From positions 17,006-79,565 of the forward strand of contig CAYLVY010000003.1 of the NCBI GenBank assembly GCA_964387205.1: 62,560 nucleotides of DNA. The letters are read 5' to 3'. Source of the stretch: an uncultured Draconibacterium sp. (GTDB lineage: Bacteria; Bacteroidota; Bacteroidia; Bacteroidales; FEN-979). Position numbers and translations under genes: made by a program. The notes below the pieces were generated by a model that did no database searches, was not told the DNA's origin, and worked only from the letters and a program-made list of their open reading frames with translations. Shown here piece by piece: positions 9 to 59,810 of the stretch; within the stretch, counting starts at the first letter, position 1, and every line of letters starts with the position of its first letter.

Positions 9-34
9 TTCCACACTAACCTGAAAACTGACCT

Positions 35-844: not shown

Positions 845-847
845 CAC

Positions 848-3217: not shown

Positions 3218-3249
3218 ATTTATGAACCAAAACCAATAACCCCGCTGCT

Positions 3250-6224: not shown

Positions 6225-6274
6225 GACCGTACGATGATTTGTTCTGAATATAAATCAACTGAAAATATAGTTCC

Positions 6275-8565: not shown

Positions 8566-8580
8566 TGGTGCTGAACAACT

Positions 8581-10599: not shown

Positions 10600-10603
10600 T
10601 CGT

Positions 10604-11494: not shown

Positions 11495-11504
11495 TTTTAC
11501 GGTT

Positions 11505-12284: not shown

Positions 12285-13263
12285 TCCCCGACCTTTGGTA
12301 TCGGTGGTAATCCCGGCCTACAAGGCGGAATCGCTCATCGCGGAAACCCTCGCCTCGGTGAGGGACCAGCAGCATGAGCCGCTGGAGGTTTTCGTGATCG
12401 ACGATGGTTCCCCTGACCAGACGGCAAAGGTTGCCCGGGGATTCGTTTCCGGTTCCATCCGGGTGATCGAACAGAAAAACAGCGGTGCCTGCGTGGCCCG
12501 GAATCTGGGACTCTCGCTCAGCAAGGGCAAATACATACAGTTTCTCGACGCCGATGATGTGCTGAGCCCCGATAAGATCGCGTCACAGGTTGATGTGCTG
12601 GAGCATAACCCGGGCTGCCTGGGCGTCTCGCCAACGGTTCATTTCATGCACGGAGAAGAGTACCTCAAAATGTCGCCGCGGGATGAATCATTCTGGATCC
12701 ACGACTCCGATGATCCGGTCGGTTTCCTCGTCAGGTTATACGGCGGCAATGGTCCGCGGTGGATGGTTCAAACCAGCGCCTGGCTTACCCCGAAATCGAT
12801 CACCGATACCATCGGCCCCTGGAATGAAAAGCTGCTTCTTGATCAGGATGGTGAGTATTTTGCACGGGCTGTCCTCGCTTCACGCGGGATCAGGACCACG
12901 GGAGGTATCAACTATTACCGGCGGTTTTTCCATGGAGGCAGCATCTCAGGCAAAGCCAACCGGAAGGAAAACCTCGAAAGCGCCCTGCTCGCCCTGAACC
13001 TGAAGGGGGGATACCTGGGACAACATACCCAATCGGAGCAGTACCGTAAGGCAATGGCTACCCTTTATATGGAGATCGCTGTCAATGCCTATCCCCGGTT
13101 TCCCGACCTGGTCAGGATCTGCGAGGAAGCTGTTGCCCGTACCGGTAAAAAGCCGGAAATTCCGGTATTGGGAGGTTCCATAATCGAAATGACCAGAAAA
13201 ATGTTCGGATGGAAAAGGGCCAAGGATTTCCGGCGGCTGATCCATACGCTGGTCAAACGTTAA
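12277..13263 (+). CDS. Glycosyltransferase family 2
   Basis: [11 protein letters not shown]...[10 protein letters not shown] and an LDADD motif. Overlaps the previous gene by 8 nt. Confidence 0.85.
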
Positions 13264-13270
13264 TATTAAC

Positions 13271-14512: not shown

Positions 14513-15807
14513 CCATGAAACATCTCCTGATCATCTCCCCTAATTTTCCGCCTATCAATGCTGCCGATATGCACCGTGTCAGGCAGAGCCTTCCCTATTT
14601 TCCTGAAATGGGGTGGAAAGCGACCGTGGTGGCTGTGGAACCCGGATTTGTTGAGATGAGTGAAGATCCGTTGCTGCTGAAAACCCTGCCCGGTGACACG
14701 GAAATTATCCGCATCCCTGCCTGGAAACCGGAAAAGACCCGGAAGTTCGGGTTGGGAAACCTGGGCTACCGTTCCCTTTACTCCTATTGCAAAACCTGCA
14801 GCGAACTGATCCGCCGGAACCGCTATGACCTGATCTATTTCTCCACCACGGCCTTTCCCGTCATGGTGCTGGGAAGGTATTGGAAACAGCGTTTTGGTAT
14901 CCCTTTTATTATCGACATGCAGGATCCCTGGCGGAATGACTTTTATCTCGACAAACCCAGGAACGAGCGCCCACCCAAGTTCCGGATCGCCTACACGATG
15001 GATAAATACATGGAGCGTTATGCCATGCAGAAGGTGGATGGCATCGTGTCGGTTTCCGCGGGTTATCCGAAAACCCTTTCAGAACGTTATCCGCGCATCC
15101 GCCCGGAGATGTGCACCGTGATCCCTTTTGGCGGGGCTTCCGTTGACTTTGACATCCTGGATACTACAACGATCGACAATCCCCTGTTCCGTAAAAATGA
15201 AAAAAACATCAATATCGCTTACATAGGCAGGGGCGGACACGACATGGCCCTCGCCACCGGCAGTATGTTTCGGGCGGTCCGGGAGGGGCTTGACAGGGAA
15301 CCGGGGCTTTTTTCCCGGTTGCAGTTCTTTTTTGTCGGCACCAGTTACGCCGCCGATGGCATGGGACAAAAAACCATTGAGCCGGTCGCGGAAAAATGGG
15401 GCGTTGCCGGTCAGGTGACGGAGATCACCGACAGGCTCCCCTATTTTACTGCCTTACAGGTACTGAGGGATGCTGATATGCTCTTTATTCCGGGGTCGAC
15501 CGATGCCCAGTACACCGCATCCAAACTCTATCCCTATATTCTTGCCTCAAAACCACTTATCGCTGTTTTCAATGAAAACAGCAGCGTGGTGGAGATCCTG
15601 GCCAGAACCCGAGCCGGCGCCTGTGTCACATTCACCAACGAAGAGACACCGGAAATGATAGCGCCCCGCGTCAGGGAGGCCCTCGGGGAGATAGCCGGGA
15701 GGCTGCCATTCACTCCGGCTACCGACTGGCAGGAATTCGAACCCTATTCCGCCAGAGAGGCGACACGACGGCAGGTAGAATTTTTCAACAAAATTACCGG
15801 ATCATGA
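14509..15807 (+). CDS. GT-B fold glycosyltransferase (GT4-like)
   Basis: 432 aa with GT-B architecture (LFIPGSTDAQYTASKLYPYILASKPLIAV). ATGA overlap with the upstream gene. Confidence 0.65.
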   Translation: MTMKHLLIISPNFPPINAADMHRVRQSLPYFPEMGWKATVVAVEPGFVEMSEDPLLLKTLPGDTEIIRIPAWKPEKTRKFGLGNLGYRSLYSYCKTCSELIRRNRYDLIYFSTTAFPVMVLGRYWKQRFGIPFIIDMQDPWRNDFYLDKPRNERPPKFRIAYTMDKYMERYAMQKVDGIVSVSAGYPKTLSERYPRIRPEMCTVIPFGGASVDFDILDTTTIDNPLFRKNEKNINIAYIGRGGHDMALATGSMFRAVREGLDREPGLFSRLQFFFVGTSYAADGMGQKTIEPVAEKWGVAGQVTEITDRLPYFTALQVLRDADMLFIPGSTDAQYTASKLYPYILASKPLIAVFNENSSVVEILARTRAGACVTFTNEETPEMIAPRVREALGEIAGRLPFTPATDWQEFEPYSAREATRRQVEFFNKITGS

Positions 15808-16970
15808 AACGAAAACTGGCTATCATCTCCTCCCATCCGATCCAGTACAACGCGCCGATGTTCGCCCTGTTGAACACCGACAAAGAATTGGATATCAGGG
15901 TTTATTACACTTGGAGTCAGAGCCGGGAATCATTATTCGATAAGGATTTCGGGAGGGTCATCGAGTGGGATATTCCATTGCTGGAAGGTTATCCATACGA
16001 GTTCATCGAAAATGTTTCCAAAACACCCGGCCCCGGATCCTATAAAGGGATTGTGTGCCCGGAACTCAACCGGCGCATCTCCTCGTGGGGCGCGGAGGCT
16101 TTGCTGGTTTACGGATGGAATTACCATGCCCACTACAATGCCATGAAGAATTTCAAGGGGAAGATCCCGGTATTTTTCCGGGGCGACTCCACCCTGCTGG
16201 ACGAAACGGGAGGCATCAAACAGGCGGCCCGGCGTGCCGTACTCCGGTATATTTACCGCAGCGCGGATTATGCATTTTATGTCGGGGAAAACAACCGTCA
16301 GTATTATCTCACCCATGGTTTTTCTCCCGAAAGGCTCTTTTTCGCCCCGCATGCCATTGACAACGAGCGTTTCAGCGACCCTGACGGCACCAAAGCAGCG
16401 GAAGCAGCCGCATGGCGGCATCAACTGGGCATCGGAGAACATGAACCGGTCGTTTTGTTCGTTGGCAAATTTGAGCCGAAAAAAAATCCCGACATCCTCC
16501 TCAGGGCGGCCGCGATGCTTACCGGGAACAACATACATTTTATCTTCGCAGGAAACGGCCTGCTGGAAAAAGAGATGAAGGAGCAGGCAGCCGGGCACAC
16601 CGGGATCCATTTCATCCCCTTTCAAAACCAAAGCAAAATGCCTGTGGTGTACCGTCTGTGCGATATACTCGCGCTTCCGTCAGCGGGGCCCGGCGAGACA
16701 TGGGGACTGGCGGTGAATGAAGCCATGGCCTGCGGCAAAGCAATTCTGGTCAGCAACAAATGCGGTTGCGCTGTCGATCTCGTGGTCCCCGGCCAAAACG
16801 GTTATATCATGGATGCCGGTAATCTCCAACAGTGCGCGGAATATATCGGTCAGATGACCCGTTCGAAAGATAGCCTGCGTGAAATGGGGGCATTTTCAAC
16901 CTCACATATTGCTTCCTGGTCGTTCGGTGAAGTGTGCAACAGTTTCCGCGACAATATTTTAAAGCACTGA
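15804..16970 (+). CDS. Glycosyltransferase family 4 (group 1)
   Basis: LALPSAGPGETWGLAVNEAMACGKAILVS is a classic GT4 EX7E region. ATGA overlap with the upstream gene. Confidence 0.85.
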   Translation: MKRKLAIISSHPIQYNAPMFALLNTDKELDIRVYYTWSQSRESLFDKDFGRVIEWDIPLLEGYPYEFIENVSKTPGPGSYKGIVCPELNRRISSWGAEALLVYGWNYHAHYNAMKNFKGKIPVFFRGDSTLLDETGGIKQAARRAVLRYIYRSADYAFYVGENNRQYYLTHGFSPERLFFAPHAIDNERFSDPDGTKAAEAAAWRHQLGIGEHEPVVLFVGKFEPKKNPDILLRAAAMLTGNNIHFIFAGNGLLEKEMKEQAAGHTGIHFIPFQNQSKMPVVYRLCDILALPSAGPGETWGLAVNEAMACGKAILVSNKCGCAVDLVVPGQNGYIMDAGNLQQCAEYIGQMTRSKDSLREMGAFSTSHIASWSFGEVCNSFRDNILKH

Positions 16971-16979
16971 AATCATACC

Positions 16980-18389
16980 ATGTATATCTCCCATCGAAGT
17001 ATCCGTCTGGTAGCGATTGGCCTGGGAGTTTTCGCCTTTTTCGAACTCTTTACCGGCCTCTATTTCATGTCGGGAATCGGCGTAGGGCTCTTTGCCGCTA
17101 CGGCTGTGAAATTCTTCGAAGATCTTGGCAAACGGATCGAGATCCGTGATCTCATTGCTTTTATGTCGATACTTCAATGGGTGCTGGGGCCGGTACTGGC
17201 CTACAATGTACTGCCTTATGATGAACTCTATTACATGGCCGTTCCGGAAGCGCAGTATATGAACTACATCGTCCCCTTCTGTTTTATGATGATCCTGGGG
17301 CTCTATTATCCCCTGAAAAATGAGAGGATCATTGACGATGAAGATGTGGACAGGGTAAAAGTATATCTGGCCGCTCACCCCTGGCTGGGTTATATTTTTA
17401 TCGGCATCGGCCTCACGGCCGGATTTATCAGCAAGAGCCTGCCATCGAGCCTCACTTTCCTGATGTTTCTGGTCACCAACCTTCAGTATGTCGGAATTTA
17501 CATGGTATTGTTCGGTACGGCGAAATTCAAGTGGCTAATCTTCGGAGGTGTCATGGGAATGGCCACATTCGCCGCTGTTCTGCAAGGGATGTTCGGGGAA
17601 CTGGTGCAATGGTTTACACTCTCCTTCCTCGTCATTGCCATGGTGGTCAAAATCCCCATGTGGGGAAAAATCACCCTGATGGGGATCGGGATGTTCCTCA
17701 TCCTGCTGGTACAATCGACCAAAGAGGAATACCGCATGGCCACCTGGTATGCCACCAGTGATAAAACCAACGACCAGATCTACCGTGAGATCATCCAGGA
17801 AAGGTTGGCTTCTCCGGGGATGCTGCTGGAATCCAATGTCACCCAGAATATGGGGGCCCGTCTGAACCAGGGGTGGATCATTGCCCGCATCCTTAATTAC
17901 ATGCCCGAAAAGCAACCATTTGTAAGGGGCGAGACCATCAGTACCGCCCTGAGCGCCGCGCTGCTCCCCCGCATCCTTGCACCCGGCAAAATCAAAGCCG
18001 GCGGCAGGGCCAATTTTGAACGATTTACCGGTACCCCCCTGCCCGAAACTACCAGCATGGACATCTCCCTGGCCGGCGAGGGGTATGCCAATTTCGGCAC
18101 CATGGGAGGAATGGCCTTCATTTTTCTGGTCTCACTTTTTTATAACTGGGTAATAATCAATGTAATATCTCTTTCTAAAAAACATCCCACCCTGATCCTC
18201 TGGATACCATTTCTGTTTTTCCAGGTCATGAAAGCGGAGACCGATTTTGCCACTGTGATCAACTACCTGACTAAATCGGCGCTGGTCGCTTTCATGGTTT
18301 TTTACATCACCGGGGTGATCATGAACTGGAATAAAAAGCGAAAGTTTATCAGCGCCGCCCAAACCGATCCGGTCGGGAGCAACCCATGA
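16980..18389 (+). CDS. Polytopic membrane protein, Wzy-polymerase / O-antigen-ligase-like
   Basis: 469 aa with at least 10 hydrophobic helices. A large loop of about 100 aa (RLNQGW...SLAGEGYANFG) sits between the late helices, as in Wzy/WaaL-type proteins. No catalytic motif is assignable by eye. Confidence 0.55.
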   Translation: MYISHRSIRLVAIGLGVFAFFELFTGLYFMSGIGVGLFAATAVKFFEDLGKRIEIRDLIAFMSILQWVLGPVLAYNVLPYDELYYMAVPEAQYMNYIVPFCFMMILGLYYPLKNERIIDDEDVDRVKVYLAAHPWLGYIFIGIGLTAGFISKSLPSSLTFLMFLVTNLQYVGIYMVLFGTAKFKWLIFGGVMGMATFAAVLQGMFGELVQWFTLSFLVIAMVVKIPMWGKITLMGIGMFLILLVQSTKEEYRMATWYATSDKTNDQIYREIIQERLASPGMLLESNVTQNMGARLNQGWIIARILNYMPEKQPFVRGETISTALSAALLPRILAPGKIKAGGRANFERFTGTPLPETTSMDISLAGEGYANFGTMGGMAFIFLVSLFYNWVIINVISLSKKHPTLILWIPFLFFQVMKAETDFATVINYLTKSALVAFMVFYITGVIMNWNKKRKFISAAQTDPVGSNP

Positions 18390-19240
18390 CAGCGATCAGG
18401 CACGATAACCCGCACCTGATCGTCCTTCCGGCCTTCAACGAAGCGCAACAGATCGGGAAGCTGCTGGAAAAACTGATCGGCTTCCGTGACCATGTGCTGG
18501 TCGTGGATGATGGCAGTACCGATCGCACCCCGGAAATCATCCGAATGGCAGGATTCCGTTATTGCACCCATAATTCCCGGAAAGGGTTGCAGGCTGTATA
18601 TCTCACCGCGGAATCTTATGCCGCGGAACACGGGTATGCACGCATTGTGTCGATGGATGCCGACGGACAACATGATCCGGCTTTTCTGGATGGTTTTATT
18701 CATGGATACGTTAGTGATTATATGATCATCGGGAACCGCTTCCGCCATCCCGAAACGGTTCCTCCGTCCAAACTCGCTTCCAACCTCTTTGCCGTGCTGC
18801 TTTTCAGAGAGAAGCTCAACATCCGATTACCCGATGTAGCCTGCGGTTTCCGAAGCTGGCCGGCGGGAACCATCACGGCTATGACCCGCAAGGCAGATGA
18901 AGGATTCAGCGCATTTGAGATCATCTACCGGATGATCGTCAGCCACGCCATGGCGGGGAAAGGATTCGGAAATGTAGAAATTCCCGCCACCTATCTGCCC
19001 GGTCAGCCATTAACCACCCGGGCCACCGAGATCAAAGGGCTGCTCAGGAGTATCCCGGACTTTGAAAATGATGGTGACATTCCCGGAATCCTCGAATGTC
19101 TGGAACATCACCATGATTTTACCATATCTTTGCAGGGTTTTCACTTTATCGCCGGCCAGGCAGGTAATGACACCTGGCTTTTTCAGACCGATACGGAGAA
19201 GGCCATTGAATTTTTCCGCTTTGCGGGAACTGCAAAATAG
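18386..19240 (+). CDS. GT2 polyprenyl-phosphate glycosyltransferase-like (Dpm1/GtrB-like, soluble form)
   Basis: LPAFNEAQQIGKLL...VVDDGSTDRT...MDADGQHDP pattern. ATGA overlap with the upstream membrane protein. Confidence 0.7.
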   Translation: MTAIRHDNPHLIVLPAFNEAQQIGKLLEKLIGFRDHVLVVDDGSTDRTPEIIRMAGFRYCTHNSRKGLQAVYLTAESYAAEHGYARIVSMDADGQHDPAFLDGFIHGYVSDYMIIGNRFRHPETVPPSKLASNLFAVLLFREKLNIRLPDVACGFRSWPAGTITAMTRKADEGFSAFEIIYRMIVSHAMAGKGFGNVEIPATYLPGQPLTTRATEIKGLLRSIPDFENDGDIPGILECLEHHHDFTISLQGFHFIAGQAGNDTWLFQTDTEKAIEFFRFAGTAK

Positions 19241-19245
19241 AAGTC

Positions 19246-19932
19246 ATGTTTGAAAATATCGATAAACATCCTGCCGGTGAAACCATTCCATACCATGTGG
19301 GGATCATCCCCGACGGAGGACGGCGATGGGCAAAGGCACAGGGGGTTACCCTGGAGGAGGCTTACCTGCAAACCCGCCTGAGACTGCAGAAACTGACAGA
19401 GCGGTTGATTTACACTTCCGTGAAGGAGGTTTCGGTCTATCTCTCCAGTATTCAGAATTTCAGGCGCGGACCGGAAGATTTGATCCCTTATCTGAAATCG
19501 CTGGAATCATCATTCTCACAGGAGATCCCATTGATGGCCCTTCATCTTGACCTGAAAATAGTTATGGCCGGCGACCGGGACATCCTACCTTCCGGATTGA
19601 GACAATTGATCGAAAAGGTTGAAAATGAATCTGCAGGTCGTCAGAAAGCCCGGCTGAATCTTCTTATTGCCTACGACCCGTGGGAAGAACTCGCGGAAGC
19701 AATGAACCGCTGCCCGGACCCAACACGGCTCGCCGGTTATCTGCAGGTTTCCACCCCCGTGGACCTGATCATCCGGACCGGAGGGGCGCCGCTGCTCAGC
19801 AACTTTCTTCCCCTGCAATCGGGTTTTGCAAGGTTTTACTGCGTTGATAAACTTTTCAACGATTTCACCGCCGAAGATCTTCAGGACATACTCCATACCT
19901 TTTCCGGGTTGAACCGGCAGTTCGGAACGTGA
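19246..19932 (+). CDS. Divergent cis-prenyltransferase (undecaprenyl-diphosphate-synthase family paralog)
   Basis: HVGIIPDGGRRWA versus canonical HVAIIMDGNGRWA. SSIQNFRRGPEDL versus FSTENWxRPxxEV. IIRTGGAPLLSNFLPLQ versus IRTSGExRxSNFLxWQ. C-terminal NRQFG. Confidence 0.75.
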   Translation: MFENIDKHPAGETIPYHVGIIPDGGRRWAKAQGVTLEEAYLQTRLRLQKLTERLIYTSVKEVSVYLSSIQNFRRGPEDLIPYLKSLESSFSQEIPLMALHLDLKIVMAGDRDILPSGLRQLIEKVENESAGRQKARLNLLIAYDPWEELAEAMNRCPDPTRLAGYLQVSTPVDLIIRTGGAPLLSNFLPLQSGFARFYCVDKLFNDFTAEDLQDILHTFSGLNRQFGT

Positions 19933-19934
19933 GG

Positions 19935-20024
19935 CAGCCAGACCTTCCAGGTTTTGAAAACCCGGAAGGTCTTATTCCTCAGCCAGACCTTCCAGGTTTT
20001 GAAAACCTGGAAGGTCTTATTCCC
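19935..20024. repeat. Two tandem 45-bp units, each containing an 11-14 bp palindromic hairpin. Probable bidirectional terminator or REP-like element.
   Basis: The unit is CAGCCAGACCTTCCAGGTTTTGAAAACC[C/T]GGAAGGTCTTATTCC[T/C]. Copy 2 (stem 19986-19996 / 20006-20016) is a perfect palindrome; copy 1 has one stem mismatch. The repeat fills the 95-nt convergent gap between the prenyltransferase and the TonB receptor. Confidence 0.85.
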
Positions 20025-49407: not shown

Positions 49408-50171
49408 TGAAAGAATTTTCCATATGGCGACGGCACGGGAAACAATTCGTCCCTGATTTGCGCAATGCTGTCCTTCCCGATATTTTCCGCGGTCGTCCCG
49501 TAATCGCAGCCGACATTTCAGGGGAGGAGGCAAAAGCTGCAGCAGAATGCTGCCCGGTGGACGCTATCCGCACAAATCCATGCACCCTCGACCTGGGCCG
49601 GTGTGTTTTTTGCAGGGAATGTACCTTTCTCAGTGGCGAAAAAATAAAATTCACGCGCGATTTCCGGATGGCCACCAATAACCGCAACGATCTGATCATC
49701 AGACAGGGAGAAGACAAACCGATACGGATCGACGATGCGAAGGTAAGAAAAGAGGTCGGAACACTCTTTCGTCACGCACTCAAATTAAGACAGGTTTCAG
49801 CCGGCGGCGACAATTCGGCCGAGATGGAGCTCAATGCAGCCGGCAATGTCAATTTCGACATGGGAAGATATGGAATCGAATTTGTAGCCTCCCCCCGCCA
49901 TGCCGATGGTGTGGTGATCACCGGGCCTGTCTCCGCCAACATGTCAGAAGCGCTTGAAATCTGCTACCATTCCATTCCCATGCCCCGGATCATCATTCTT
50001 GCCGGTAGTGATGCCATCGGAGGAGGCCTTTTCCAGGAAAGCCCCGCCATAAACCGGCAATTTTTATCGCAATATCCTGTAGATCTTTTTGTTCCCGGAA
50101 ATCCTCCTCACCCTCTCACTTTCATAAACGGGATACTGGACCTCACACGCGGATCACTTTTTCCCAAGTAA
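49404..50171 (+). CDS. NuoB/HycG-HyfI-like small subunit lacking all four [4Fe-4S] cysteines, fused to an N-terminal ferredoxin-like remnant
   Basis: FVASPRHADGVVITGPV is conserved. Against E. coli HycG recalled from memory, CGGCNGCE reads AGGDNSAE, GACG reads GSDA and PGCPP reads PGNPP. The N-terminal part carries ECCPVDAI and CVFCREC. The start is refined to the ATG at 49404, overlapping the upstream stop. Confidence 0.85.
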   Translation: MMKEFSIWRRHGKQFVPDLRNAVLPDIFRGRPVIAADISGEEAKAAAECCPVDAIRTNPCTLDLGRCVFCRECTFLSGEKIKFTRDFRMATNNRNDLIIRQGEDKPIRIDDAKVRKEVGTLFRHALKLRQVSAGGDNSAEMELNAAGNVNFDMGRYGIEFVASPRHADGVVITGPVSANMSEALEICYHSIPMPRIIILAGSDAIGGGLFQESPAINRQFLSQYPVDLFVPGNPPHPLTFINGILDLTRGSLFPK

Positions 50172-52049
50172 AAGATAATGCCTCCAGTCGAACACCAGGC
50201 GAAATCCCCCGTACCAGATGCTTTTCACCGGCGGGAAAGGATCCCCTTCGTCCAGAATAACTTTTCGTTTACCCGGGATATCCAACCCTGCGTGCAACTG
50301 CAGTTTCATGTTGGCCCCCTGCCTGGCACCATAAATGCGTAAAAAACGGTATTCGACAACTGGAAACTCCAATTGCGTCGAATACATGGTGATCAGGGTT
50401 TGTTCATCCTGCACCCCTTTCTTTCCCAGGATCATATGATCAGGGCCCTCGCCGGTGCCATACATGCAAACTCCGACCTCGCGGCCAAGGATAAACTGAA
50501 ACCTCCCGATGGGTGTGGTAATGCCCGACTGCCATGGAAGTAACCCCCCGTTCCCGGCGGTAACGATCATTTTATTGAGGGTGGCAGGAGATGACAACAG
50601 CAGGACAGGGGCGGCCACGAGCAGATCGCCGGGAAGAAGGAAGAAAGGCAGTCTTAACCTCATATACCAGGCATCACGGCCGGGAATGGCAGTCATATAG
50701 GACCCAAACTGCTTCAGCTCCGGATCATCTTCGATGGAGATCGAACTGGAACTTTCAAGCCTCCAGCCCAGGTCCAGAAAGGCCAGTCCATCACCTGATT
50801 CGTTGACCACTCCGTCCATTCCAAGCCCGACACGCAGCGCCATTTCCAGACCCGGGATCACTCCGGTTGATCTTTGCCTTGTCCCGAAACCGCCGTCATG
50901 AAAATGAACATGCAAAGCCGGGGCGATGCCGATAAAGGGACCCAGTTCGGCATTGATGCGCGGAAGGGCACCCAGTCCGGTAGCCAGCCCCGGAGCAGGA
51001 GTGCCTGCAAGCACCTGGTTGCATCGGTAATCGATGGCCGGACTGACGAGGCGATAGATATGAACCTTGGCAAGACTGACATTAAGGGTATCCGGCATCA
51101 TAACGTCTACATCCTCCACGACATCTTCCTTCAGGTCATTTCCGGCAGCGGCGTCCAGCACCTGGGTTAGGCTGATCAGCACCGCATCAGCGGCTTCATC
51201 AATATCCTGAGGCCGGATATAGGCATCGCCGGTGAGGATGATCTTCCGGCCATTCCAGGTCGTCACCTGCAGGCCGGCTTCATTGTAATAATCGTGAGTC
51301 CCCTTGCGCTGGGAAGCGTCACCCCATATTCCGGCCACATGACCGGCGGCAAAATTATCCTCCAGGAAATGAAGGGCAAAAGCCTCATCGGCCAGCATGC
51401 TCAGGGCGATACTGCTTCGTTGCTCCGGGGTCAGACCGGGAGAAGCCAGGCGCTTTGCTTTGATCAACGCGCTGTTATGGAACCAGGTATAAATACCTAC
51501 GATGTTCAGGGGGGCGCCGGGTTTGCAACAGGAATCAAAGTAGGCAGCGGCACCAATATCTACATTGGGTAATGCCATCAGAAAATGGCCGAAATTATTG
51601 CCGGCCCGGGCAATATAATCGGGATCGGCACGCAGCAGCCGGATATCGGAATCCCTCAGACGATTGATCCGCTCACTCTCATTGCGGGCAGTGGCGATGC
51701 CCTCGCCAAGCTGGGCGCCGATCGAGGCCACTTTCATGATCCATTCCGAATGGAGAATGATCCGGAGCATGTCGTCGGGTGATGCCGAATGGTCACCGCC
51801 AATAGCCGGCCAGGTGACAAAATCAAGTTGTTCCGGATGTAATCCCTGTTGGTCTTCCATCACTCCGGGAAACAATCTGGCCTCATGGCCCTTTCGCGCT
51901 GCAGTCCATAGTGCATCCAGCAGCGCTCTGTGTTGCGGGTCAAGCCTTTCGACAGCAGTCCGGGTGATATCCCGGTGCTCGGGAAATACCCATGCATATC
52001 CATTCCAGCCGGCCAGCAGGAACGTCAGGATAAATAGAAACTTTTTCAT
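50154..52049 (-). CDS. Secreted 631-aa protein of unknown function, possibly with a zinc-dependent PLC / S1-P1-like N-terminal domain
   Basis: Signal peptide (cleavage near GYA-W). The N-terminal W-x5-H (WVFPEHRD), GGDHS, HFLEDNFAAGH and THDYYNE motifs loosely resemble PLC/P1-nuclease metal ligands. The C-terminal half of about 300 aa is beta-rich. The 3' end overlaps the Ehr operon end by 18 nt. Confidence 0.5.
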   Translation of the reverse strand: MKKFLFILTFLLAGWNGYAWVFPEHRDITRTAVERLDPQHRALLDALWTAARKGHEARLFPGVMEDQQGLHPEQLDFVTWPAIGGDHSASPDDMLRIILHSEWIMKVASIGAQLGEGIATARNESERINRLRDSDIRLLRADPDYIARAGNNFGHFLMALPNVDIGAAAYFDSCCKPGAPLNIVGIYTWFHNSALIKAKRLASPGLTPEQRSSIALSMLADEAFALHFLEDNFAAGHVAGIWGDASQRKGTHDYYNEAGLQVTTWNGRKIILTGDAYIRPQDIDEAADAVLISLTQVLDAAAGNDLKEDVVEDVDVMMPDTLNVSLAKVHIYRLVSPAIDYRCNQVLAGTPAPGLATGLGALPRINAELGPFIGIAPALHVHFHDGGFGTRQRSTGVIPGLEMALRVGLGMDGVVNESGDGLAFLDLGWRLESSSSISIEDDPELKQFGSYMTAIPGRDAWYMRLRLPFFLLPGDLLVAAPVLLLSSPATLNKMIVTAGNGGLLPWQSGITTPIGRFQFILGREVGVCMYGTGEGPDHMILGKKGVQDEQTLITMYSTQLEFPVVEYRFLRIYGARQGANMKLQLHAGLDIPGKRKVILDEGDPFPPVKSIWYGGFRLVFDWRHYLLLGKK

Positions 52050-52064
52050 GGCCTTCAGGATCAG

Positions 52065-52439
52065 TTAGTTGTTTGGGGCTCCGGCGTCAATCCACTTTTT
52101 GATACGGCTAAGATCGCATCCGGGTAATTTCGACAATCCTTCCGGCATGGGACGATAGCCGGGTTCATGGTTTACCGAACCCCAGAGTTTTCCGTTCCGG
52201 ACCAAAACCTGTAAGCCGGCATAGGTATCGGTGATCCATCCCCCATTCGCACCGGCTCCGGAATGACAATCATTGCAGGAAGTCTTCATCAATGGAGCGA
52301 CTGTCAGAAGATAAGTGACGCCGGTGGGGTCACAGTCCGACGGGATGGCGATATCCTGCAGGTTGTCGCTGGCACAAGAAAACAGGAATGCCATTAAAAT
52401 CAACACAATAAAAGCCTTTTTCAGCATTTTTCCAATCAT
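52065..52439 (-). CDS. Lipoprotein with a single heme-c motif (PSCyt1-like cytochrome c domain)
   Basis: MIGKMLKKAFIVLILMAFLFSC lipobox, CNDCH heme-binding motif, and C-terminal LSRIKKWIDAGAP typical of PSCyt1-type domains. The start is refined to Met25/Met29 of the ORF-track protein. Confidence 0.65.
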   Translation of the reverse strand: MIGKMLKKAFIVLILMAFLFSCASDNLQDIAIPSDCDPTGVTYLLTVAPLMKTSCNDCHSGAGANGGWITDTYAGLQVLVRNGKLWGSVNHEPGYRPMPEGLSKLPGCDLSRIKKWIDAGAPNN

Positions 52440-52733
52440 ACGGGATGAAATATTTAAATATCGTTCAGACAAATATAGTGATTTTAAAACAGGGCCGCAT
52501 CTCTTTACCACTAAATGCCATTTCTTAACTAAAGGTATTTCCAGGCATGTTACCTCCTACTGTTAAACAAAAACATGTTTATTTTACACTTATTTGGTAT
52601 TTTAAATTATTATTTTTATTCTTCAGTAAGAATTATTCTTTTTTAATAAATTTACTATCAGTCAGTTATAAGGAAATCTTGTTTCATTCAACTAATTTGT
52701 TACCAAAGTGTTGCAAACAAATACCAAATGACC

Positions 52734-52741
52734 TATATTTG
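52734..52741 (+). promoter_or_regulatory. Candidate -7 promoter box TATATTTG in an AT-rich divergent intergenic region
   Basis: Exact TAnnTTTG match, 38 nt upstream of the ATG at 52779. Confidence 0.4.
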
Positions 52742-52778
52742 TGAATGCATTCACATTCAATTTTCTTAACCTGATGAT

Positions 52779-53696
52779 ATGAAAAACTTTATGCTCTTTC
52801 TGTTGTGCCTGGGACTGGGCACGGCAACGTTGTCTGCCCAGGAGGTGATTGTCACCGATGATCCCGCTTACACCACACCGGCATCCGGTTCCGTACTGGA
52901 TGTGAAATCAACGACAAAAGGGATGATTATCCCACGGATGACGACCGCCCAGCGTACCACCCTGGGAAGTACCACCCCGGCCGACGGCGTGGTGGTCTAT
53001 GATACCGATCTGGCCTCGTTTTACTACTGGGACCACACCGAATGGAAACAAATTGCGGCTTCAGGGCTCAACCTGACCAACTACAAATTCGGGGACGGCA
53101 CCAATTATTCAACATTTGAAGCCGATGGCACCCTCGTTTTTTACGGCGATGCCACTGTTTGGGATGACATCATGATCCCGGGATTCTCGACCAGAAGCAG
53201 TACAAATTCCCCTGACTTTGCAGTTTTTGTTAACGGGACCTATCTGAATTACTTTGCTGATGCAGGTTCCAACAGTGAAAACCAGGTCTTCTTCACGGCC
53301 CAGTTCCCGCATGCATGGGATGGCGGGGAGATCCGGCCCCACATCCACTGGTCGCCGGAAACCGATCCCGGTACAGCCGCCGTTGTCCGGTGGGGGCTGG
53401 AATATACCTGGGCAGAGTATAATCCCACTACACCGGAAACATTTCCGGCCACCACCACCATTTATACCAACGCCTCAACTCCTGCCGGCAGCCAGAAAAA
53501 ACACCTGATCGCTTCCTTTTCCCCCATCACACCTTCCTCCACTCAGGATGGCATCAGCAGCATGATGGTGTGCCGGCTCTTCCGGAACTCGAGCGATGCT
53601 GCTGATACATATAACAGCAAGAGAGCAGGGTTTCTTCAGTTCGACATCCATTACAAGAGAAATACTGAAGGCAGCCGTACCGAATTTATAAAATAA
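52779..53696 (+). CDS. Secreted protein of unknown function
   Basis: Signal peptide (TLSAQE). N-terminal module LDVKSTTKGMIIPRMTTAQRTTL...GVVVYDTDLASFYYWDHTEWKQI. The C-terminal half of about 190 aa is beta-rich. Confidence 0.7.
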   Translation: MKNFMLFLLCLGLGTATLSAQEVIVTDDPAYTTPASGSVLDVKSTTKGMIIPRMTTAQRTTLGSTTPADGVVVYDTDLASFYYWDHTEWKQIAASGLNLTNYKFGDGTNYSTFEADGTLVFYGDATVWDDIMIPGFSTRSSTNSPDFAVFVNGTYLNYFADAGSNSENQVFFTAQFPHAWDGGEIRPHIHWSPETDPGTAAVVRWGLEYTWAEYNPTTPETFPATTTIYTNASTPAGSQKKHLIASFSPITPSSTQDGISSMMVCRLFRNSSDAADTYNSKRAGFLQFDIHYKRNTEGSRTEFIK

Positions 53697-53699
53697 CCT

Positions 53700-55166
53700 A
53701 TGAAACGTTCAGCGCTCTTACTTGTATTATATTTCCCGGCCATCCTCGTCATGGCTCAGGGAATCATTATCCGGCCGGGGGCTTATATGACAATCGGTAC
53801 CGATGCCTATGTGAAAACGACCGGTACCGCGGGCCTCACCCTGGAGTCGAACCCGGACGGAACCGCCTCACTTCTTGATGAAGACGGGAACCTGACAGTG
53901 TCGGGAGATCTTGTTTCGCAACTATATATTGCCAAAAATGCATGGCATATCGTATCTCCCAATACTTCCGGGGTTACGGCGCTTGACTTTTACTGGAACG
54001 ACGATCCGCAATGCTGGCTCACCTATCATCAGGAGAGTGACAACACCTGGCATTACAACACCAACCTCTCCACCAGCATGCCATTGGGACAGGGTTGGAT
54101 GGTTTGGCTGGACAATGCATACAGCGGTGCAGGGGCCACCGTGGAGATGTCGGGCGCACTTCGCTCCGATGATCTCTCTCCTGCCATCTCATACGGCGGC
54201 AGCAGCTGGAACCTGACCGGAAATCCATACCCCTGTGCACTCGACTGGGGTGATGCAGGCTGGACAAGGAGCAACGTGGAAGGGACAGTATGGATCTGGG
54301 ACAATCCATCAAACAACTATCTGTACCGCACTACGGCAGGGGGAGGTACCATGAGCAACGGGATCATCCCCCAGGGGCAGGGCTTTTTTATCAAATCCAC
54401 CGGCAGTTCACCGGTACTTACCATTCCGGCCCAGGCCAGGCAGCACAGCAATCAGGATTTCTATAAAAACACGGAATCAGTGAATGGTTATGCAGATTAC
54501 CTGGTGCTCAGGGTCAGCCAGGGAATACAGGCCGATGCCGTTTGGGTCAGTTTCGGTGAAAACGGATCCGAGGGATTTGAAAACGGATGGGACGCTACCA
54601 AGCTCCGCGGAGGTGAATCGGCCCCGCAACTCTATCTGCCGGAACAGGGAAGGCAACAAAGCATCAACCATCTCTATCTGCTTTCCGGGGAAGAAGAGCG
54701 TATCGTTCCGCTGAATTTTAAAGCCGGTACCAACGGGGAGCATATTTTAAAGGCAGATGCGTCCCGCTTTACCGGAAAAACCATCATCCTGGATGATCTG
54801 CAAACCGGTCAGTCACAATACCTGACTGAGAATCCTGTCTATGCGTTTCAGGGAAATGTAAACGATCCTGCCGACCGGTTCCGTTTGAGGTTCCGAAAAG
54901 CGCTGGGCGTGCCTTCATCAGAAAATACGGCTGCTTTTGTTTACACTTTCGGAGGAGAAGGGACTGTCCATGTCCGACTGGGAAACGCTGCGCCACAAAA
55001 GGTGACAATGGCAAGGGTTTACTCCGTTCAGGGGGCTTTAGTGGGAGAGTGTCCGGTTTATCCGGGTTCCGACAATATCCTGAACATCCCACATGCCAGG
55101 GGATGCCTGATCGTAAAGGTAACCGGAGCAGACTGGCAACACATCAGTAAAGTTATCGTCAAATAG
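53700..55166 (+). CDS. Secreted protein with a T9SS C-terminal sorting domain
   Basis: Signal peptide. The last ~75 aa (ARVYSVQGALVGE...GCLIVKVTGADWQHISKVIVK) fit the Por/T9SS CTD pattern. Starts 3 nt after the upstream stop. Confidence 0.7.
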   Translation: MKRSALLLVLYFPAILVMAQGIIIRPGAYMTIGTDAYVKTTGTAGLTLESNPDGTASLLDEDGNLTVSGDLVSQLYIAKNAWHIVSPNTSGVTALDFYWNDDPQCWLTYHQESDNTWHYNTNLSTSMPLGQGWMVWLDNAYSGAGATVEMSGALRSDDLSPAISYGGSSWNLTGNPYPCALDWGDAGWTRSNVEGTVWIWDNPSNNYLYRTTAGGGTMSNGIIPQGQGFFIKSTGSSPVLTIPAQARQHSNQDFYKNTESVNGYADYLVLRVSQGIQADAVWVSFGENGSEGFENGWDATKLRGGESAPQLYLPEQGRQQSINHLYLLSGEEERIVPLNFKAGTNGEHILKADASRFTGKTIILDDLQTGQSQYLTENPVYAFQGNVNDPADRFRLRFRKALGVPSSENTAAFVYTFGGEGTVHVRLGNAAPQKVTMARVYSVQGALVGECPVYPGSDNILNIPHARGCLIVKVTGADWQHISKVIVK

Positions 55167-55173
55167 CAACCTC

Positions 55174-55449
55174 ATGAAATACCTGATCCGCACATTATCG
55201 AAGATGCTCTTCCCAATCCTTTTCGCTTTCCTAACTATACAGGTAATGGCTGAAGATCCGCCCCCACCCCCGCCGGGAGGCAGTGTGGGCGACGGATCCG
55301 GTAAAGGGGGAGACGTCAATGTCAGGAACGGAGCCACCGGCGCCCCTATCGATCGTAATACCAGCGCCCTGATCGCCGTTCTGATCATTTCAGCCGGATT
55401 TGGCAGTTACCTGCTCCTGAAGAAAGAGAAGGCCACGGATGGTGCCTGA
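55174..55449 (+). CDS. Small pre-protein: signal peptide, 34-aa Pro/Gly-rich segment, C-terminal TM helix, basic tail
   Basis: 91 aa. Residues 1-26 are a signal peptide (..IQVMA). EDPPPPPPGGSVGDGSGKGGDVNVRNGATGAPID follows, then ALIAVLIISAGFGSYLLL and KKEK. Overlaps the downstream exosortase-like gene by 11 nt. Confidence 0.6.
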   Translation: MKYLIRTLSKMLFPILFAFLTIQVMAEDPPPPPPGGSVGDGSGKGGDVNVRNGATGAPIDRNTSALIAVLIISAGFGSYLLLKKEKATDGA

Positions 55450-56062
55450 TTCCCTGATCCGGCGCCTGACGCCTGAATCATCATTTTTCAAAAGAAACAG
55501 GACCGTCATCAGGTTTCTGGTAAGATTGGTGACAGCCCTGTTGATCTATTTTGTCCTCATCACCCTGATCAAATCCAACCCTGCCTGGGATCGGTACTTT
55601 AAAACTTCAGGACCTGTCTACGCCCTTTCAGCAGCCTCCGCCCATACTACCCGTGAGGCCCTGAACCTGTCAGGCTATGAAGCCGAAGTCCATTATTCCT
55701 ATGCCTATACCGACGTGATCGGCCAGGGAGTTTTTGTGGTCAATATACCCGGCAGCGACGGAATATGGATAGGAGGCCATTGCCTTGGACTAAAATTGCT
55801 GGGAATTTTCGTCATTCTGATTGCAGCCTTCCCGGGCCGGTTGCGAAGAAAAATCTGGTTCATCGCCGGCGGGATAACCCTTATCGAAGCGATCTATATT
55901 TGGCGACTGGCCTACCTTGTGGTAGTCAGCAAAAAAGTCGCCGAAAGCGGGGCAGACTTCAACATGGCAGCTTTTTCGGGTCAGGTTCACGACTATCTCA
56001 ACCTGGGATTGTATATCCTGATCATTATCCTTTTCTTTCTTTACGCCCGTTTTGTAGCCTGA
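55439..56062 (+). CDS. Exosortase/archaeosortase-family-like membrane protein
   Basis: 207 aa with 4 TM helices. GGHCLGLKLLGIFVILIAAFPG (Cys115), IEAIYIWRLAYL (Arg156) and VHDY (His184) have XrtF-like order and spacing. Confidence 0.55.
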   Translation: MVPDSLIRRLTPESSFFKRNRTVIRFLVRLVTALLIYFVLITLIKSNPAWDRYFKTSGPVYALSAASAHTTREALNLSGYEAEVHYSYAYTDVIGQGVFVVNIPGSDGIWIGGHCLGLKLLGIFVILIAAFPGRLRRKIWFIAGGITLIEAIYIWRLAYLVVVSKKVAESGADFNMAAFSGQVHDYLNLGLYILIIILFFLYARFVA

Positions 56063-56241: not shown

Positions 56242-57111
56242 ATGGAACGTATTAAAGAAAAATCAACCATGTCGGGCTATATTGCCATCCTGGTTAGCCT
56301 GTTGATGATCGCCCTTGGGGTATGCGGGATGGTCTGGTTCAACCATCTGGTTTCGGGAATTGTGGTCTCGTTGCTCCTGATCCTTGCGGGCGTGTTTATT
56401 ACCGGAGGATTGCTGGTGGTCAACCCGAACGAATCCTCGGTACTGGTGCTGTTTGGCGCTTACAAAGGTACAATCCGCCAAAACGGATTTTTCTGGGTGA
56501 ATCCTTTCTATCACCGGAAGAAAATCTCCCTGAGGGCCCGCAACCTGAACCGTGAACCTATCAAAGTAAATGACAGACTGGGGAACCCGATCATGATCGG
56601 CATCGTGCTGGTATGGCGTGTGGAGGAGACCTTCAAAGCCGCCTTTGAGGTAGATGATTACAGCCATTTTGTGGATATTCAAAGTGAATCGGCCACGCGA
56701 AAACTTGCAGGGCATTATGCTTACGACAACTTCGACGATGAGCAGCAGGAGATCACCCTTCGCTCAGGCGGAGAGGAGGTCAACCACGCCCTGGAGACTG
56801 AATTGTCAGAGCGGCTGGCGATGGCCGGGATCAAGGTGCTCGAAGCGCGGATCAGTTATCTGGCATATGCTTCCGAGATCGCAGGGGCGATGTTGCGCCG
56901 TCAGCAAGCGACTGCGGTAGTAGCGGCCCGTACCAAGATCGTGGAAGGAGCGGTTAGTATGGTAGAACTTGCACTGGATCAGCTCAGTAAAAAGAAAGTG
57001 GTGGCGTTGGACGAAGACAAAAAAGCGACGATGGTAAGCAACCTGATGGTGGTGTTGTGCTCCGACAAGGACACCACTCCGGTGGTGAATACCGGAACCC
57101 TGCATCAATAA
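56242..57111 (+). CDS. SPFH/band-7 (stomatin-prohibitin) domain membrane protein
   Basis: Two N-terminal TM helices, then an SPFH-like core (VNPNESSVLVLFGAYKGTIRQNGFFWVNPF...) and a coiled-coil tail. Confidence 0.75.
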   Translation: MERIKEKSTMSGYIAILVSLLMIALGVCGMVWFNHLVSGIVVSLLLILAGVFITGGLLVVNPNESSVLVLFGAYKGTIRQNGFFWVNPFYHRKKISLRARNLNREPIKVNDRLGNPIMIGIVLVWRVEETFKAAFEVDDYSHFVDIQSESATRKLAGHYAYDNFDDEQQEITLRSGGEEVNHALETELSERLAMAGIKVLEARISYLAYASEIAGAMLRRQQATAVVAARTKIVEGAVSMVELALDQLSKKKVVALDEDKKATMVSNLMVVLCSDKDTTPVVNTGTLHQ

Positions 57112-57116
57112 AGGAT

Positions 57117-57299
57117 ATGGCGGGGAAGAAAGTATTTATGCTGAGGGTCAACCCTGAGGTTTATGAAGCCCTGGAGAAGTGGGCAGCGGATGAATTCAGG
57201 TCGGTCAATGGTCAGATCGAATGGATCCTGGATTCGGCATTGAAACAACACAGGAGGACACCCGGCGAAAAAACAGAAGAGGAGGAGACAAAGCCCTGA
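57117..57299 (+). CDS. Arc/MetJ-type ribbon-helix-helix protein
   Basis: 60 aa. KKVFMLRVNPEVYEALEKWAADEFRSVNGQIEWIL fits an RHH fold. The start is refined to the ATG at 57117. Confidence 0.6.
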   Translation: MAGKKVFMLRVNPEVYEALEKWAADEFRSVNGQIEWILDSALKQHRRTPGEKTEEEETKP

Positions 57300-57323: not shown

Positions 57324-57593
57324 TTACGCTTTGCCAAAGAGGCGCTGTAGGAAGGTCCTGTTCTTTCTGGCTGATTCCTTATCGTCGGAATAATAGCCAT
57401 AGCCATAACCGTAGCCGTAACCCGATCCGTAGCCGTAACCGTAGCCATAGCCATAACCGTAGCCATAACCGTAGCCGTAGCCGTAGGAACTTCTGTCGAG
57501 CCGCACGTCGTTGATGAGGATAGCCAGGTGGGGGAGTCCCCGTGTCTCCATATCGTAGATAATCGAATCGAATATCTGCTTATTGGTATATCC
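57324..57593 (-). pseudogene. C-terminal segment of the second Wzc-like kinase (last kinase strand plus the (YG)n Tyr cluster), cut off by an in-frame TAG
   Basis: It is in the same frame as 57594-59810. It reads GYTNKQIFDSIIYDMETRGLPHLAILINDVRLDRSS(YG)10SG(YG)4YYSDD..., the expected continuation of a BY-kinase after ...LFLAR. Confidence 0.75.
57390..57485 (-). repeat. Imperfect 6-bp microsatellite (TAYGGN)n encoding (YG)10-SG-(YG)4-YY
   Basis: A direct codon-by-codon reading gives 16 Tyr within 32 residues. Confidence 0.9.
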
Positions 57594-59810
57594 CTACCGG
57601 GCGAGGAAGAGCGATGCATCCGCGAGCTTCATCAGCAAAAATGCATCGGTAACCAACCCAACCGGGGGTGTATCGATGATGATGTAATCATATCGCTTCT
57701 TGAGTTCCGTAAACATTTCAACACACCTTTCCGAGGCGATCAGTTCGGCGGGGTTTGGCGGGATGGGTCCCGATACAAGGATATCGAACTGATCCACACC
57801 GGAAGGGAAGATGATATCCTCCAACTTGCTTTTTCCGATGAGATACGAACTGATCCCTTCGGCATTGCTCAGGTCAAAATCCTTATGCAACTTCGGTTTT
57901 CGGAGGTCAAATCCCATCAGCAGGGTCTTTTTGCCGTACATGGCGAAAATGGAGGCCAGGTTGGTCGAGATAAAAGTCTTTCCTGCGCCCACCATATCAG
58001 CAGTGATCAGGATAGTTTGCTGTTCTTTTCCCTGCAGGAGGTAATTCAGGTTGGTACGCACCGAACGGAAGGATTCGGCGAGGGTTGACTTCGGATAATC
58101 CATCACCACCACCTTTCCTTCTTTATCGTTATGGATCACATGTCCGACAATGGGAAGCGGTGTGATTTTTTCAATGTCTTCACGGGCAATGATCTTGTCG
58201 TTAAAATAGTCTTTGCCGAAGATGTAAACCACCGGGATGATCAATCCGAGGATCAGCGCGATGATATAGTTCAGGCTCTTTTTGGGGAATACCGGGGTTT
58301 GACCTTTGATTGTGGCTTCATCCACCACTTCATTGTCGGACAGATTGGCGGCCAGGGTGATCTGTGCTTCCGAACGCTTCTGAAGAAGATAGGTATAAAT
58401 GGCGTCGGTAAGTTTGAATTTTCGTTCGATCCCAAACAGTACCCTTTGGGTTTCCGGCAAGTTATTGATGCGAAGGTTCACCATCTGCACCCGGTTGTTA
58501 ACCTCTTTCAGGGCTATATTATTGGTATTGATAGCGCTTTTGACATTTTCATACAGTGCGTTCTTGGTAGTGGCGATCTGCAGGTCAAGGGAGATCAGCC
58601 CGGGATTTTTCTCCTTGGAGTATTGCGCCATATCGGTGCGTTTCATGTACAACTCCGTCAGTTTCCGGGTAAGGTCATTCAGGATAACATTATCGATTCC
58701 CATGGTAGCCGGCACGATCAGTTCGTCCAGTTTCTGGTTTTGCTCAATGTACTCCTTCATGTTCTGGAGGTACTTCGACCTAACCATCAGGGTAGCCTTT
58801 TCATCCTGCAGCTCCATCATCTTTTCGAATACCGAACGTGCTTCGTCATCAAGGTTCATGATCTCTTTATTAGTCCTGAACTGCATCAGGGCCCTCTCGG
58901 AAGCATCGAGTGAATCGGAAATGCCCTGCAACTCTCCATCGATAAAGCTGATCGTACGGGTAGCCACCAGGTTCTTTTTTTCCAGGCCTTTGGCCATATA
59001 TTCGCGGCAGAGGGTATTCAGAAAGTCGGCCAGTTTATGGACATTACCACCTTTAAGTTTGATCTCCACGATAGAGGCTTCACGGTTGATGGGTTCTACG
59101 GTGAAAGCCTTATACTGGGATGCTAGCGCATCATAATCGTTCAAAATGAAATAGAATGTCTGGTTCAGGTCCTCCTCAGGGTTAAAATTTTCGTTCAGCA
59201 ACAGGGTAAAACGGTATCCGCCCGATTGAACAACCTGCCCGAATTTAAAGGTTTCATTGATCTGAATCTTGGCTTTTTTACCCTCAGGGGCCTTCTTCTC
59301 ATTGAAAATGTAGAAACCCACCTCCTCTCCGTCGGCAGTCAGTGAGTAGTGGTCACGTGAGAGGATGGTCAGGTAAAACCGCAAGCCTACCGGCTGAGGG
59401 AATGAACTGTCGAACGAAACGACAAAAGGGCAGTCTTTATATAGTTCCGAGGTGACAAAATTCGACTCCCGGAAATAACTGACTTCAAATCCCAGTTTTG
59501 TGACCGTACGATAGGTCAGTGCCTGAGAGGTAAGGATCCCGATCTCGTTTTGCAGGTTCTGCTGATTGTTCATCAGGCCGATCCCCAGAAGGGCGGACGG
59601 GTCGAGTTTATTTTCAGACTTATCCTTGACCAGGAGCGTGGCTTTAACCTCGTAGACCGGTTTGGTATATTTGTTGAACACAAAGGCGAGAACCAGCGCT
59701 ATGAAAATGGTGATGGCAAAGAAATACCAGTAACGGTATATTTTAAAAAGCAGCACTTTATAATCAATGGACTGATCCTGCTGATTGAAATCCTGAAGAT
59801 GGTCGTTCAC
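57594..59810 (-). CDS. wzc: Wzc/GumC-family polysaccharide co-polymerase / BY-kinase (truncated at an in-frame TAG)
   Basis: 738 aa. Two TM helices and a coiled-coil periplasmic domain. Walker A ADMVGAGKT, A' LLMGFDLRKP and B IIIDTPPVG. Ends ...ADASLFLAR-TAG (57594-57596). Confidence 0.85.
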   Translation of the reverse strand: MNDHLQDFNQQDQSIDYKVLLFKIYRYWYFFAITIFIALVLAFVFNKYTKPVYEVKATLLVKDKSENKLDPSALLGIGLMNNQQNLQNEIGILTSQALTYRTVTKLGFEVSYFRESNFVTSELYKDCPFVVSFDSSFPQPVGLRFYLTILSRDHYSLTADGEEVGFYIFNEKKAPEGKKAKIQINETFKFGQVVQSGGYRFTLLLNENFNPEEDLNQTFYFILNDYDALASQYKAFTVEPINREASIVEIKLKGGNVHKLADFLNTLCREYMAKGLEKKNLVATRTISFIDGELQGISDSLDASERALMQFRTNKEIMNLDDEARSVFEKMMELQDEKATLMVRSKYLQNMKEYIEQNQKLDELIVPATMGIDNVILNDLTRKLTELYMKRTDMAQYSKEKNPGLISLDLQIATTKNALYENVKSAINTNNIALKEVNNRVQMVNLRINNLPETQRVLFGIERKFKLTDAIYTYLLQKRSEAQITLAANLSDNEVVDEATIKGQTPVFPKKSLNYIIALILGLIIPVVYIFGKDYFNDKIIAREDIEKITPLPIVGHVIHNDKEGKVVVMDYPKSTLAESFRSVRTNLNYLLQGKEQQTILITADMVGAGKTFISTNLASIFAMYGKKTLLMGFDLRKPKLHKDFDLSNAEGISSYLIGKSKLEDIIFPSGVDQFDILVSGPIPPNPAELIASERCVEMFTELKKRYDYIIIDTPPVGLVTDAFLLMKLADASLFLAR

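Follow-up and report, generated by a model that had tools for sequence, protein, structure and literature searches.

An exosortase-family enzyme and a candidate substrate in a conserved operon with a type IX secretion cargo protein from an uncultured Draconibacterium

A stretch of 62,560 nucleotides from an uncultured Draconibacterium sp. (contig CAYLVY010000003.1, assembly GCA_964387205.1; the whole stretch is referred to as the window) carries four co-directional, tightly spaced open reading frames (ORFs) on its plus strand, the last of which encodes a short membrane enzyme of the exosortase family. A sequence-only reading of this DNA had proposed that the four genes link secreted and type IX secretion system (T9SS) proteins to an exosortase-like enzyme. 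The ORFs, their coordinates and their spacing (gaps of 3 nt and 7 nt, then an overlap of 11 nt) are as that reading described them. It had also named beforehand three outcomes that would speak against it, namely no match to exosortase models, a catalytic triad that is not kept and an operon that is not conserved in relatives, and none of the three was found. Public records of the operon proteins either lack a name or read 'hypothetical protein'. The features of the locus are listed below.

52400-52778, plus strand: presumed operon promoter, an AT-rich intergenic region with a Bacteroidota-type -7 box, assigned from GC content and motif position
52779-53696, plus strand: protein 1, 305 aa, with a signal peptide, PTL_trimer (PF26696) and a C-terminal beta-jelly-roll/lectin-like domain
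53700-55166, plus strand: protein 2, 488 aa, with a signal peptide, an all-beta body and a T9SS type-A C-terminal domain (CTD)
54933-55166, plus strand: the T9SS type-A CTD of protein 2 (approximately aa 412-488), placed from homologs and a structural match
55174-55449, plus strand: protein 3, 91 aa, candidate exosortase substrate with a signal peptide and a tripartite C-terminal sorting signal
55339-55431, plus strand: predicted sorting signal of protein 3, with GAPID-R at aa 56-61, a transmembrane (TM) helix at 64-82 and KKEK at 83-86
55439-56062, plus strand: protein 4, 207 aa, predicted four-TM exosortase-family enzyme, its start overlapping the protein 3 stop by 11 nt
55781-55783 (TGC), 55904-55906 and 55988-55990, plus strand: putative catalytic triad codons for Cys115, Arg156 and His184, positions checked

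The intergenic region upstream is as AT-rich as had been claimed, with a GC content of 0.275 at 52400-52799 against roughly 0.52-0.55 within the operon genes, and the reported -7 box, TATATTTG (pattern TAnnTTTG), is present at 52734-52741, 37 nt 5' of the protein 1 ATG. Because this pattern is not enriched across the window (34 found, 28.3 +/- 5.1 expected), it is the position of the box alone that is suggestive. No intrinsic terminator of note was found within the operon. Each of proteins 1-3 begins with a signal-like hydrophobic segment by hydropathy calculation, consistent with the earlier description of the 305-aa protein as secreted.

On the features examined, the 207-aa protein is a member of the exosortase/archaeosortase superfamily, with predicted activity. 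It scores 34.1 bits against the TIGR04178 signature model (cut-off 23) over residues 111-206, and the family assignment first made from the sequence alone is thereby borne out by a hidden Markov model (HMM). It falls under the cut-off of every named subfamily scored, the best being XrtX (NF046081) at 65.3 bits against a cut-off of 170, followed by XrtY (35.4 against 160), XrtF (25.7 against 90) and XrtH (23.3 against 86). The nearest named subfamily is thus XrtX and not XrtF, with which the sequence-only reading had compared the enzyme, and membership of XrtF itself (TIGR04128) is rejected on its score of 25.7. Cysteine, arginine and histidine are suspected to form the superfamily's catalytic triad (10.1101/2023.06.07.544157). 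In the window enzyme they are Cys115, Arg156 and His184, at exactly the codons originally given, and in the close clade of 6 sequences they are invariant together with 62 further columns. Conservation extends well beyond this clade: across 22 homologs down to about 21% identity, the Cys and Arg are kept in all 22 and the His in at least 90%.

The proposed match of residue order and topology to exosortases also holds, as far as hydropathy can tell, with four hydrophobic segments predicted at residues 26-44, 115-133, 145-163 and 189-207. By charge count, the cytoplasmic parts include the N-terminus and the 134-144 loop, which would put Cys115 and His184 at the periplasmic ends of TM2 and TM4 and Arg156 inside TM3. 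By the same positive-inside count, Cys115 and His184 share a membrane face with the PID motif of the 91-aa protein. The hydrophobic segments and their flanking charges would thus place the active site on the outer side of the cytoplasmic membrane.

Few proteins belong to this enzyme family. Among 5.8 billion proteins, a word-indexed search returned five relatives, and in a full HMMER search of 1.84 billion cluster representatives the number falls from 172 at E<=1e-3 to 12 at E<=1e-10 and then to 3 at E<1e-30. Scans with the close-clade enzyme alignment yielded no relative in GTDB genomes or JGI metagenomes. All 22 aligned relatives match XrtX, XrtY and TIGR04178, and 21 of them match XrtF; XrtX is the best subfamily for every one, and none attains its cut-off. 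Ten other XrtX-like relatives score 60-117 bits against the same cut-off of 170. Together the relatives make up a cloud of short, XrtX-like enzymes that the curated models do not cover. The neighbourhoods of four distant exosortases (P0007, P0009, P0010 and P0018) lack the cassette, and the genes for P0009 and P0010 are situated in polysaccharide loci. A different gene context for the same XrtX-like cloud is seen at two loci with more distant enzymes of 26-27% identity (L010, 1190-2713; L011, 1757-3686), where the exosortase gene directly follows one for a polysaccharide deacetylase (Polysacc_deac_1 + DUF3473) or an epimerase and no small substrate gene lies nearby.

The standard design of a C-terminal sorting signal is a signature motif, a TM helix and a basic cluster. 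The 91-aa protein encoded directly upstream of the enzyme consists, in order, of a signal peptide (residues 1-26), the segment DPPPPPPGGS, a Gly-rich stretch, RNGATGAPID-R, a TM helix and KKEK, so that the tripartite design is present at its extreme C-terminus. The C-terminal anchor signal claimed for it is reproduced by hydropathy, and the suggestion that a candidate substrate is encoded directly upstream of the enzyme gene stands. Orthologs at four other loci (L001, L004, L005 and L006) retain G-x-PID-[RK], the TM helix and the basic cluster. With its signal peptide and low-complexity mature part, the protein resembles exosortase substrates rather than a multi-pass partner. The enzyme and substrate genes meet in the 11-nt overlap in the window and lie 2 nt apart in L005. 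A search for similar tails had been advised; the part of it that was made covered the window, where the 91-aa protein is the single instance of a motif-TM-basic tail.

To judge from sequence comparison, this tail is a divergent form of the curated PID-CTERM signal (NF046080; PF28310). The small proteins of sister loci are homologous to the window protein over their full length, with the PPPPP, Gly-rich and RNGAPID parts in common. Those of L013, L012 and L014 pass NF046080 at 36.6, 31.9 and 27.5 bits (cut-off 26), and in precomputed annotation they also bear PF28310. The helix of the window clade does not have the canonical GGL.ILLALGAAYG.KK pattern.

A structural model and comparison with homologs support the conclusion that protein 2 ends in a T9SS type-A CTD, as had been claimed for it. 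Like known type-A cargo (TIGR04183/PF18962), it has a C-terminus whose last ~77 residues align with CTD-bearing homologs; 16 of 20 aligned family members match TIGR04183, with a best E-value of 7.8e-9, and homologs bear the annotation 'T9SS type A sorting domain protein'. In the predicted model (AlphaFold-type confidence pLDDT 82.5), the C-terminus superposes on the NucA CTD in the T9SS complex 8glk_D (TMt 0.76, root-mean-square deviation 2.7 Å over 78 columns, 23% identity), while the RgpB CTD 5ag8 is matched weakly (TMt 0.37, 17.3 Å). Unlike curated cargo, protein 2 itself stays below the TIGR04183 cut-off (14.4 bits against 23, E=0.027), and its all-beta body of ~390 aa is a family-specific domain of unknown function that drew no informative match in sequence searches of PDB and PHROGs or in a fold search. 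Many giant T9SS proteins in GTDB loci, with lengths of up to 3770 aa, end in the protein 2 domain.

Protein 1 has neither a T9SS CTD nor an anchor. An identical protein (P0187, 100%) and most listed homologs carry a precomputed N-terminal match to PF26696 (PTL_trimer); a separate Pfam scan of protein 1 gave no such match at E<=1, the copy used presumably lacking the model. The AlphaFold model is confident (pLDDT 89.2), and a fold search with its C-terminal jelly-roll returned weak, generic matches to CBM36, legume lectins and a tailspike C-terminal domain. Since PTL_trimer is fused to Lcl_C or Fib_succ_major domains in other loci, the variation in these fusions suggests that proteins of this type are trimeric stalks bearing exchangeable binding heads. 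Sequence searches against PDB and PHROGs gave nothing usable, and a phage origin was rejected, the sole PHROG match being weak (E=0.0012) and of unknown function.

The four genes recur as a unit. All four genes, in unchanged order and about as closely spaced, are found at four loci of the same species (L094-L097), at three loci whose exosortase is 85% identical to that of the window (L001-L003; the range over L001 and L094 is 85-100%), in L004 at 63% and in L005 at 50%; in L006 (48%) the small gene followed by the exosortase gene is retained. The cassette thus recurs in at least four diverged lineages, with flanking genes that differ between the loci. Because the same order returns in diverged relatives, the arrangement goes beyond chance, and the operon conservation that had been put forward as a check is observed. 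In sister loci L012 and L013, whose protein 2 is 43-50% identical, PTL_trimer and protein 2 genes are followed by a canonical PID-CTERM protein, and no exosortase is adjacent. As the sister loci combine a canonical tail with no adjacent enzyme, the diverged tail goes together with the adjacent, diverged enzyme.

The association of protein 2 with a small protein extends far beyond the window clade. A GTDB scan with the protein 2 alignment yielded 78 loci (1.26 Mb), all from metagenome-assembled genomes (MAGs) and belonging to Bacteroidales, Lentimicrobiaceae, other Bacteroidota or 'Chlorobiota'. Of the 95 protein 2-family genes in them, 51 have a PID-like ORF of 70-110 aa within 700 nt downstream. 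That a T9SS cargo is paired with a PID-like small protein is therefore a general feature; only in the window clade is this pairing joined by an adjacent, overlapping exosortase and a diverged PID-R tail, which go together. The small ORFs behind protein 2 genes in these GTDB loci (L016-L093; for instance L045 11369-11617, L076 11762-12004 and L022 5527-5784) carry, after the signal peptide, PPPPP and a run rich in Gly, and their tail reads GGAPI[DG][GS]GL.ILL.LGAAYG.KK. In many of them the D of 'PID' is replaced by G, and public records label them hypothetical.

Taken together, the locus probably encodes a dedicated, co-diverged exosortase/substrate pair within a T9SS cargo module. The main arguments for the small protein as the substrate are that its tail and the enzyme have diverged together and that the two genes are translationally coupled. 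The four genes would then form a single operon for a cell-envelope module, in which proteins 1-3 are exported by Sec and protein 2 would cross the outer membrane through the T9SS by means of its type-A CTD. The C-terminal helix of the 91-aa preprotein would retain it in the inner membrane, leaving KKEK on the cytoplasmic side and GAPID-R at the periplasmic face, where the 207-aa protein, as a dedicated short XrtX-related exosortase, would recognise the tail and, through Cys115, cut at PID or close to it. Sortase A, archaeosortase A (ArtA) and XrtA suggest by analogy that the Pro/Gly-rich mature peptide of ~35 residues may then be passed to an acceptor. Enzyme and signal would have diverged together from the curated XrtX/PID-CTERM pair, and the enzyme gene would have become translationally coupled to its single substrate gene in the window clade alone. 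It is also conceivable, if unlikely, that the processed peptide is functionally or covalently coupled to the upstream T9SS cargo, so that both pathways serve one surface structure; any physical link of the peptide with proteins 1 and 2 is, like the acceptor, inferred. Should such coupling be true, the protein 2 domain and its PID-like neighbour, paired in Bacteroidales MAGs at the frequency given above, would be a general and unrecognised two-component surface module.

Several observations weigh against a dedicated pair. The PID_CTERM model NF046080 leaves the small proteins of the window, L004 and L005 unmatched even at E<=10, and an HMM built for this work from 20 canonical PID tails gives 3.7 bits for the window, less than 4 for L004 and less than 1 for L005. 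NF046080 and XrtX (NF046081) are consecutive NCBIfam accessions, and XrtX is presumed here to be the cognate enzyme of PID-CTERM from that adjacency. Within the 1.26 Mb of GTDB loci, 50 of 54 PID-like ORFs follow protein 2 homologs, and the one exosortase homolog (L092) lies 4.7 kb off with other genes between. Since PID-like ORFs follow protein 2 without an adjacent exosortase, the small protein is primarily a partner of the T9SS cargo, and its tail could be a mere membrane anchor. Cleavage and transfer are proposed by analogy, and the portion of the genome examined amounts to 62.5 kb, leaving room for further substrates or exosortases elsewhere.

These points bear differently on the competing explanations. 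The locus could hold an ordinary diverged member of the curated XrtX/PID-CTERM system whose odd scores reflect narrow model cut-offs, a possible account that is nonetheless judged distinctly less probable than a dedicated pair. XrtX is indeed the best subfamily of the enzyme; its model does look narrow, since all XrtX-like relatives tested score 60-117 against 170; and genuine PID_CTERM tails occur in sister loci on small proteins homologous over their full length. Such an account has to accommodate an enzyme at 65 of 170 bits, a tail unmatched by NF046080 with a TM segment that departs from the canonical pattern, and the placement of enzyme and substrate in one operon, seen solely in the window clade; the pairing with a T9SS cargo family was likewise not found in the literature searched.

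It is rather doubtful that the 91-aa protein stays uncleaved as a permanent bitopic inner-membrane partner or tether of protein 2, with the exosortase acting elsewhere or using it as an accessory subunit. This would sit well with the 51 of 95 protein 2 homologs that are followed by PID-like small ORFs with no exosortase nearby, with the Gly-zipper-like, conserved helix of the canonical tail, which could be structural, and with the need of XrtF for a separate associated protein (PMC10936215). Arguing the other way are the complete three-part tail at the end of the protein, the classification of the PID-CTERM family by its curators as a protein-sorting domain, the substrate-like rather than multi-pass character of the small protein, its tight translational coupling with the enzyme in three lineages and the single tail of this kind in the window. 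Finally, the adjacency might be functionally meaningless, or the 207-aa ORF an inactive relic, in a neighbourhood that is certainly fluid, since the downstream SPFH gene and the upstream genes vary among relatives. That idea is already disfavoured and highly improbable: across proteins that are 50-85% identical the four genes hold the same order and spacing between changing flanks, and within the clade neither the triad nor 62 further columns vary.

The dedicated pair favoured here belongs to a well-known type of system, an exosortase with its own C-terminal signal, and curated databases already include a PID-type signal. Short exosortases are common in Bacteroidota. With XrtX/PID-CTERM the window pair shares a short exosortase of ~170-210 aa with Cys, Arg and His and a tail of PID, TM helix and basic cluster; it differs in having PID-[RK] with another helix in place of PIDGGL..LLALGAAYG.KK and in the overlap of the enzyme gene with its single candidate substrate gene. 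PEP-CTERM/XrtA (EpsH) and PGF-CTERM/ArtA have in common with it the TIGR04178 signature and a tripartite C-terminal signal and, by analogy, cleavage at the inner membrane with proposed transfer to a new C-terminal moiety. The frequent linkage of these systems to exopolysaccharide (EPS) loci has a counterpart in the Wzc/Wza genes 1.3 kb downstream in the window. Unlike EpsH-type enzymes, the window protein is much shorter, with 4 predicted TM segments instead of ~8, and it has one adjacent candidate substrate where XrtA and ArtA have many dispersed ones; the mature substrate of ~35 residues and the operon shared with a T9SS cargo are further differences from both.

XrtF is also a short Bacteroidota exosortase. 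The statement in the sequence-only reading that it has a separate partner protein and no known substrates agrees with work on F. johnsoniae, in which xrtF mutants show defects in surface colonisation, biofilm and zorb formation as T9SS mutants do (PMC10936215). The window enzyme departs from XrtF in having a candidate substrate encoded beside it. The claimed absence of an XrtF-type partner holds at E<=1 among the seven proteins scanned, namely the four operon products and three neighbours, and extends to these seven. The claim that the arrangement is undescribed stands for the literature searched, in which nothing relevant on XrtX, XrtY or PID-CTERM was found; it does not stand for curated databases, which already hold PID-CTERM (NF046080; PF28310). 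What appears to be new is a lineage missed by the XrtX and PID-CTERM models, the joining of an enzyme and a single candidate substrate in a T9SS cargo operon, and the systematic association between PID-like small proteins and a single family of T9SS cargo domains. The operon offers a concrete candidate substrate for an exosortase group whose targets in Bacteroidota are unknown, and its four genes with three point mutants make a minimal system for testing cleavage, the attached moiety and cross-talk with the T9SS. It also reveals a co-diverged lineage that the curated XrtX and PID-CTERM models miss.

Exosortases are known to associate with EPS loci, and the distance of 1.3 kb from the cassette to downstream polysaccharide export genes of the Wzc/Wza type fits that association. 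The other lineages do not clearly share the linkage: a glycosyltransferase lies nearby in L004, and the L005 contig is too short to tell. A second polysaccharide locus, with many co-directional ORFs, occupies positions 1-20000 of the window. The neighbouring features are as follows.

848-3217: AAA_31 (Wzc-like) protein of 789 aa, polysaccharide locus
6275-7531: Wzt-type ABC transporter ATPase, polysaccharide locus
13271-14512: GT1 glycosyltransferase, polysaccharide locus
50154-52049, minus strand: 631-aa protein with no family match, first of a divergent pair upstream of the operon
52065-52511, minus strand: 148-aa protein, second of the divergent pair
56242-57111: SPFH/Band 7 gene, downstream of the operon
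57057-57299, plus strand: small ribbon-helix-helix-like ORF after the SPFH gene (RHH_5, a weak match on a 60-aa call in relatives)

The SPFH gene and the ribbon-helix-helix-like ORF are kept in L001 and L094 and are missing from the L004 cassette; the L005 contig, which ends earlier, is uninformative. As it is not conserved in L004, the SPFH gene was not counted as a part of the module. The divergent 631-aa/148-aa pair likewise adjoins the cassette in L001 and L094 but not in L004, and the 148-aa protein has a CxxCH-like SCNDCH motif with weak cytochrome-c matches. A Wzc-like tyrosine-kinase gene (Wzz/GNVR/AAA_31) carries an in-frame TAG at 57594-57596 on the minus strand, with a related segment at 57324-57551 on the same strand; its product is 738 aa instead of 828 aa and has lost the C-terminal, Tyr-rich YGYGYG... 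tail. The codon at this site is CAG both in L094, from the same species in another sample, and in L001, the 85% relative; the TAG represents a nonsense mutation or pseudogene, or else an assembly error.

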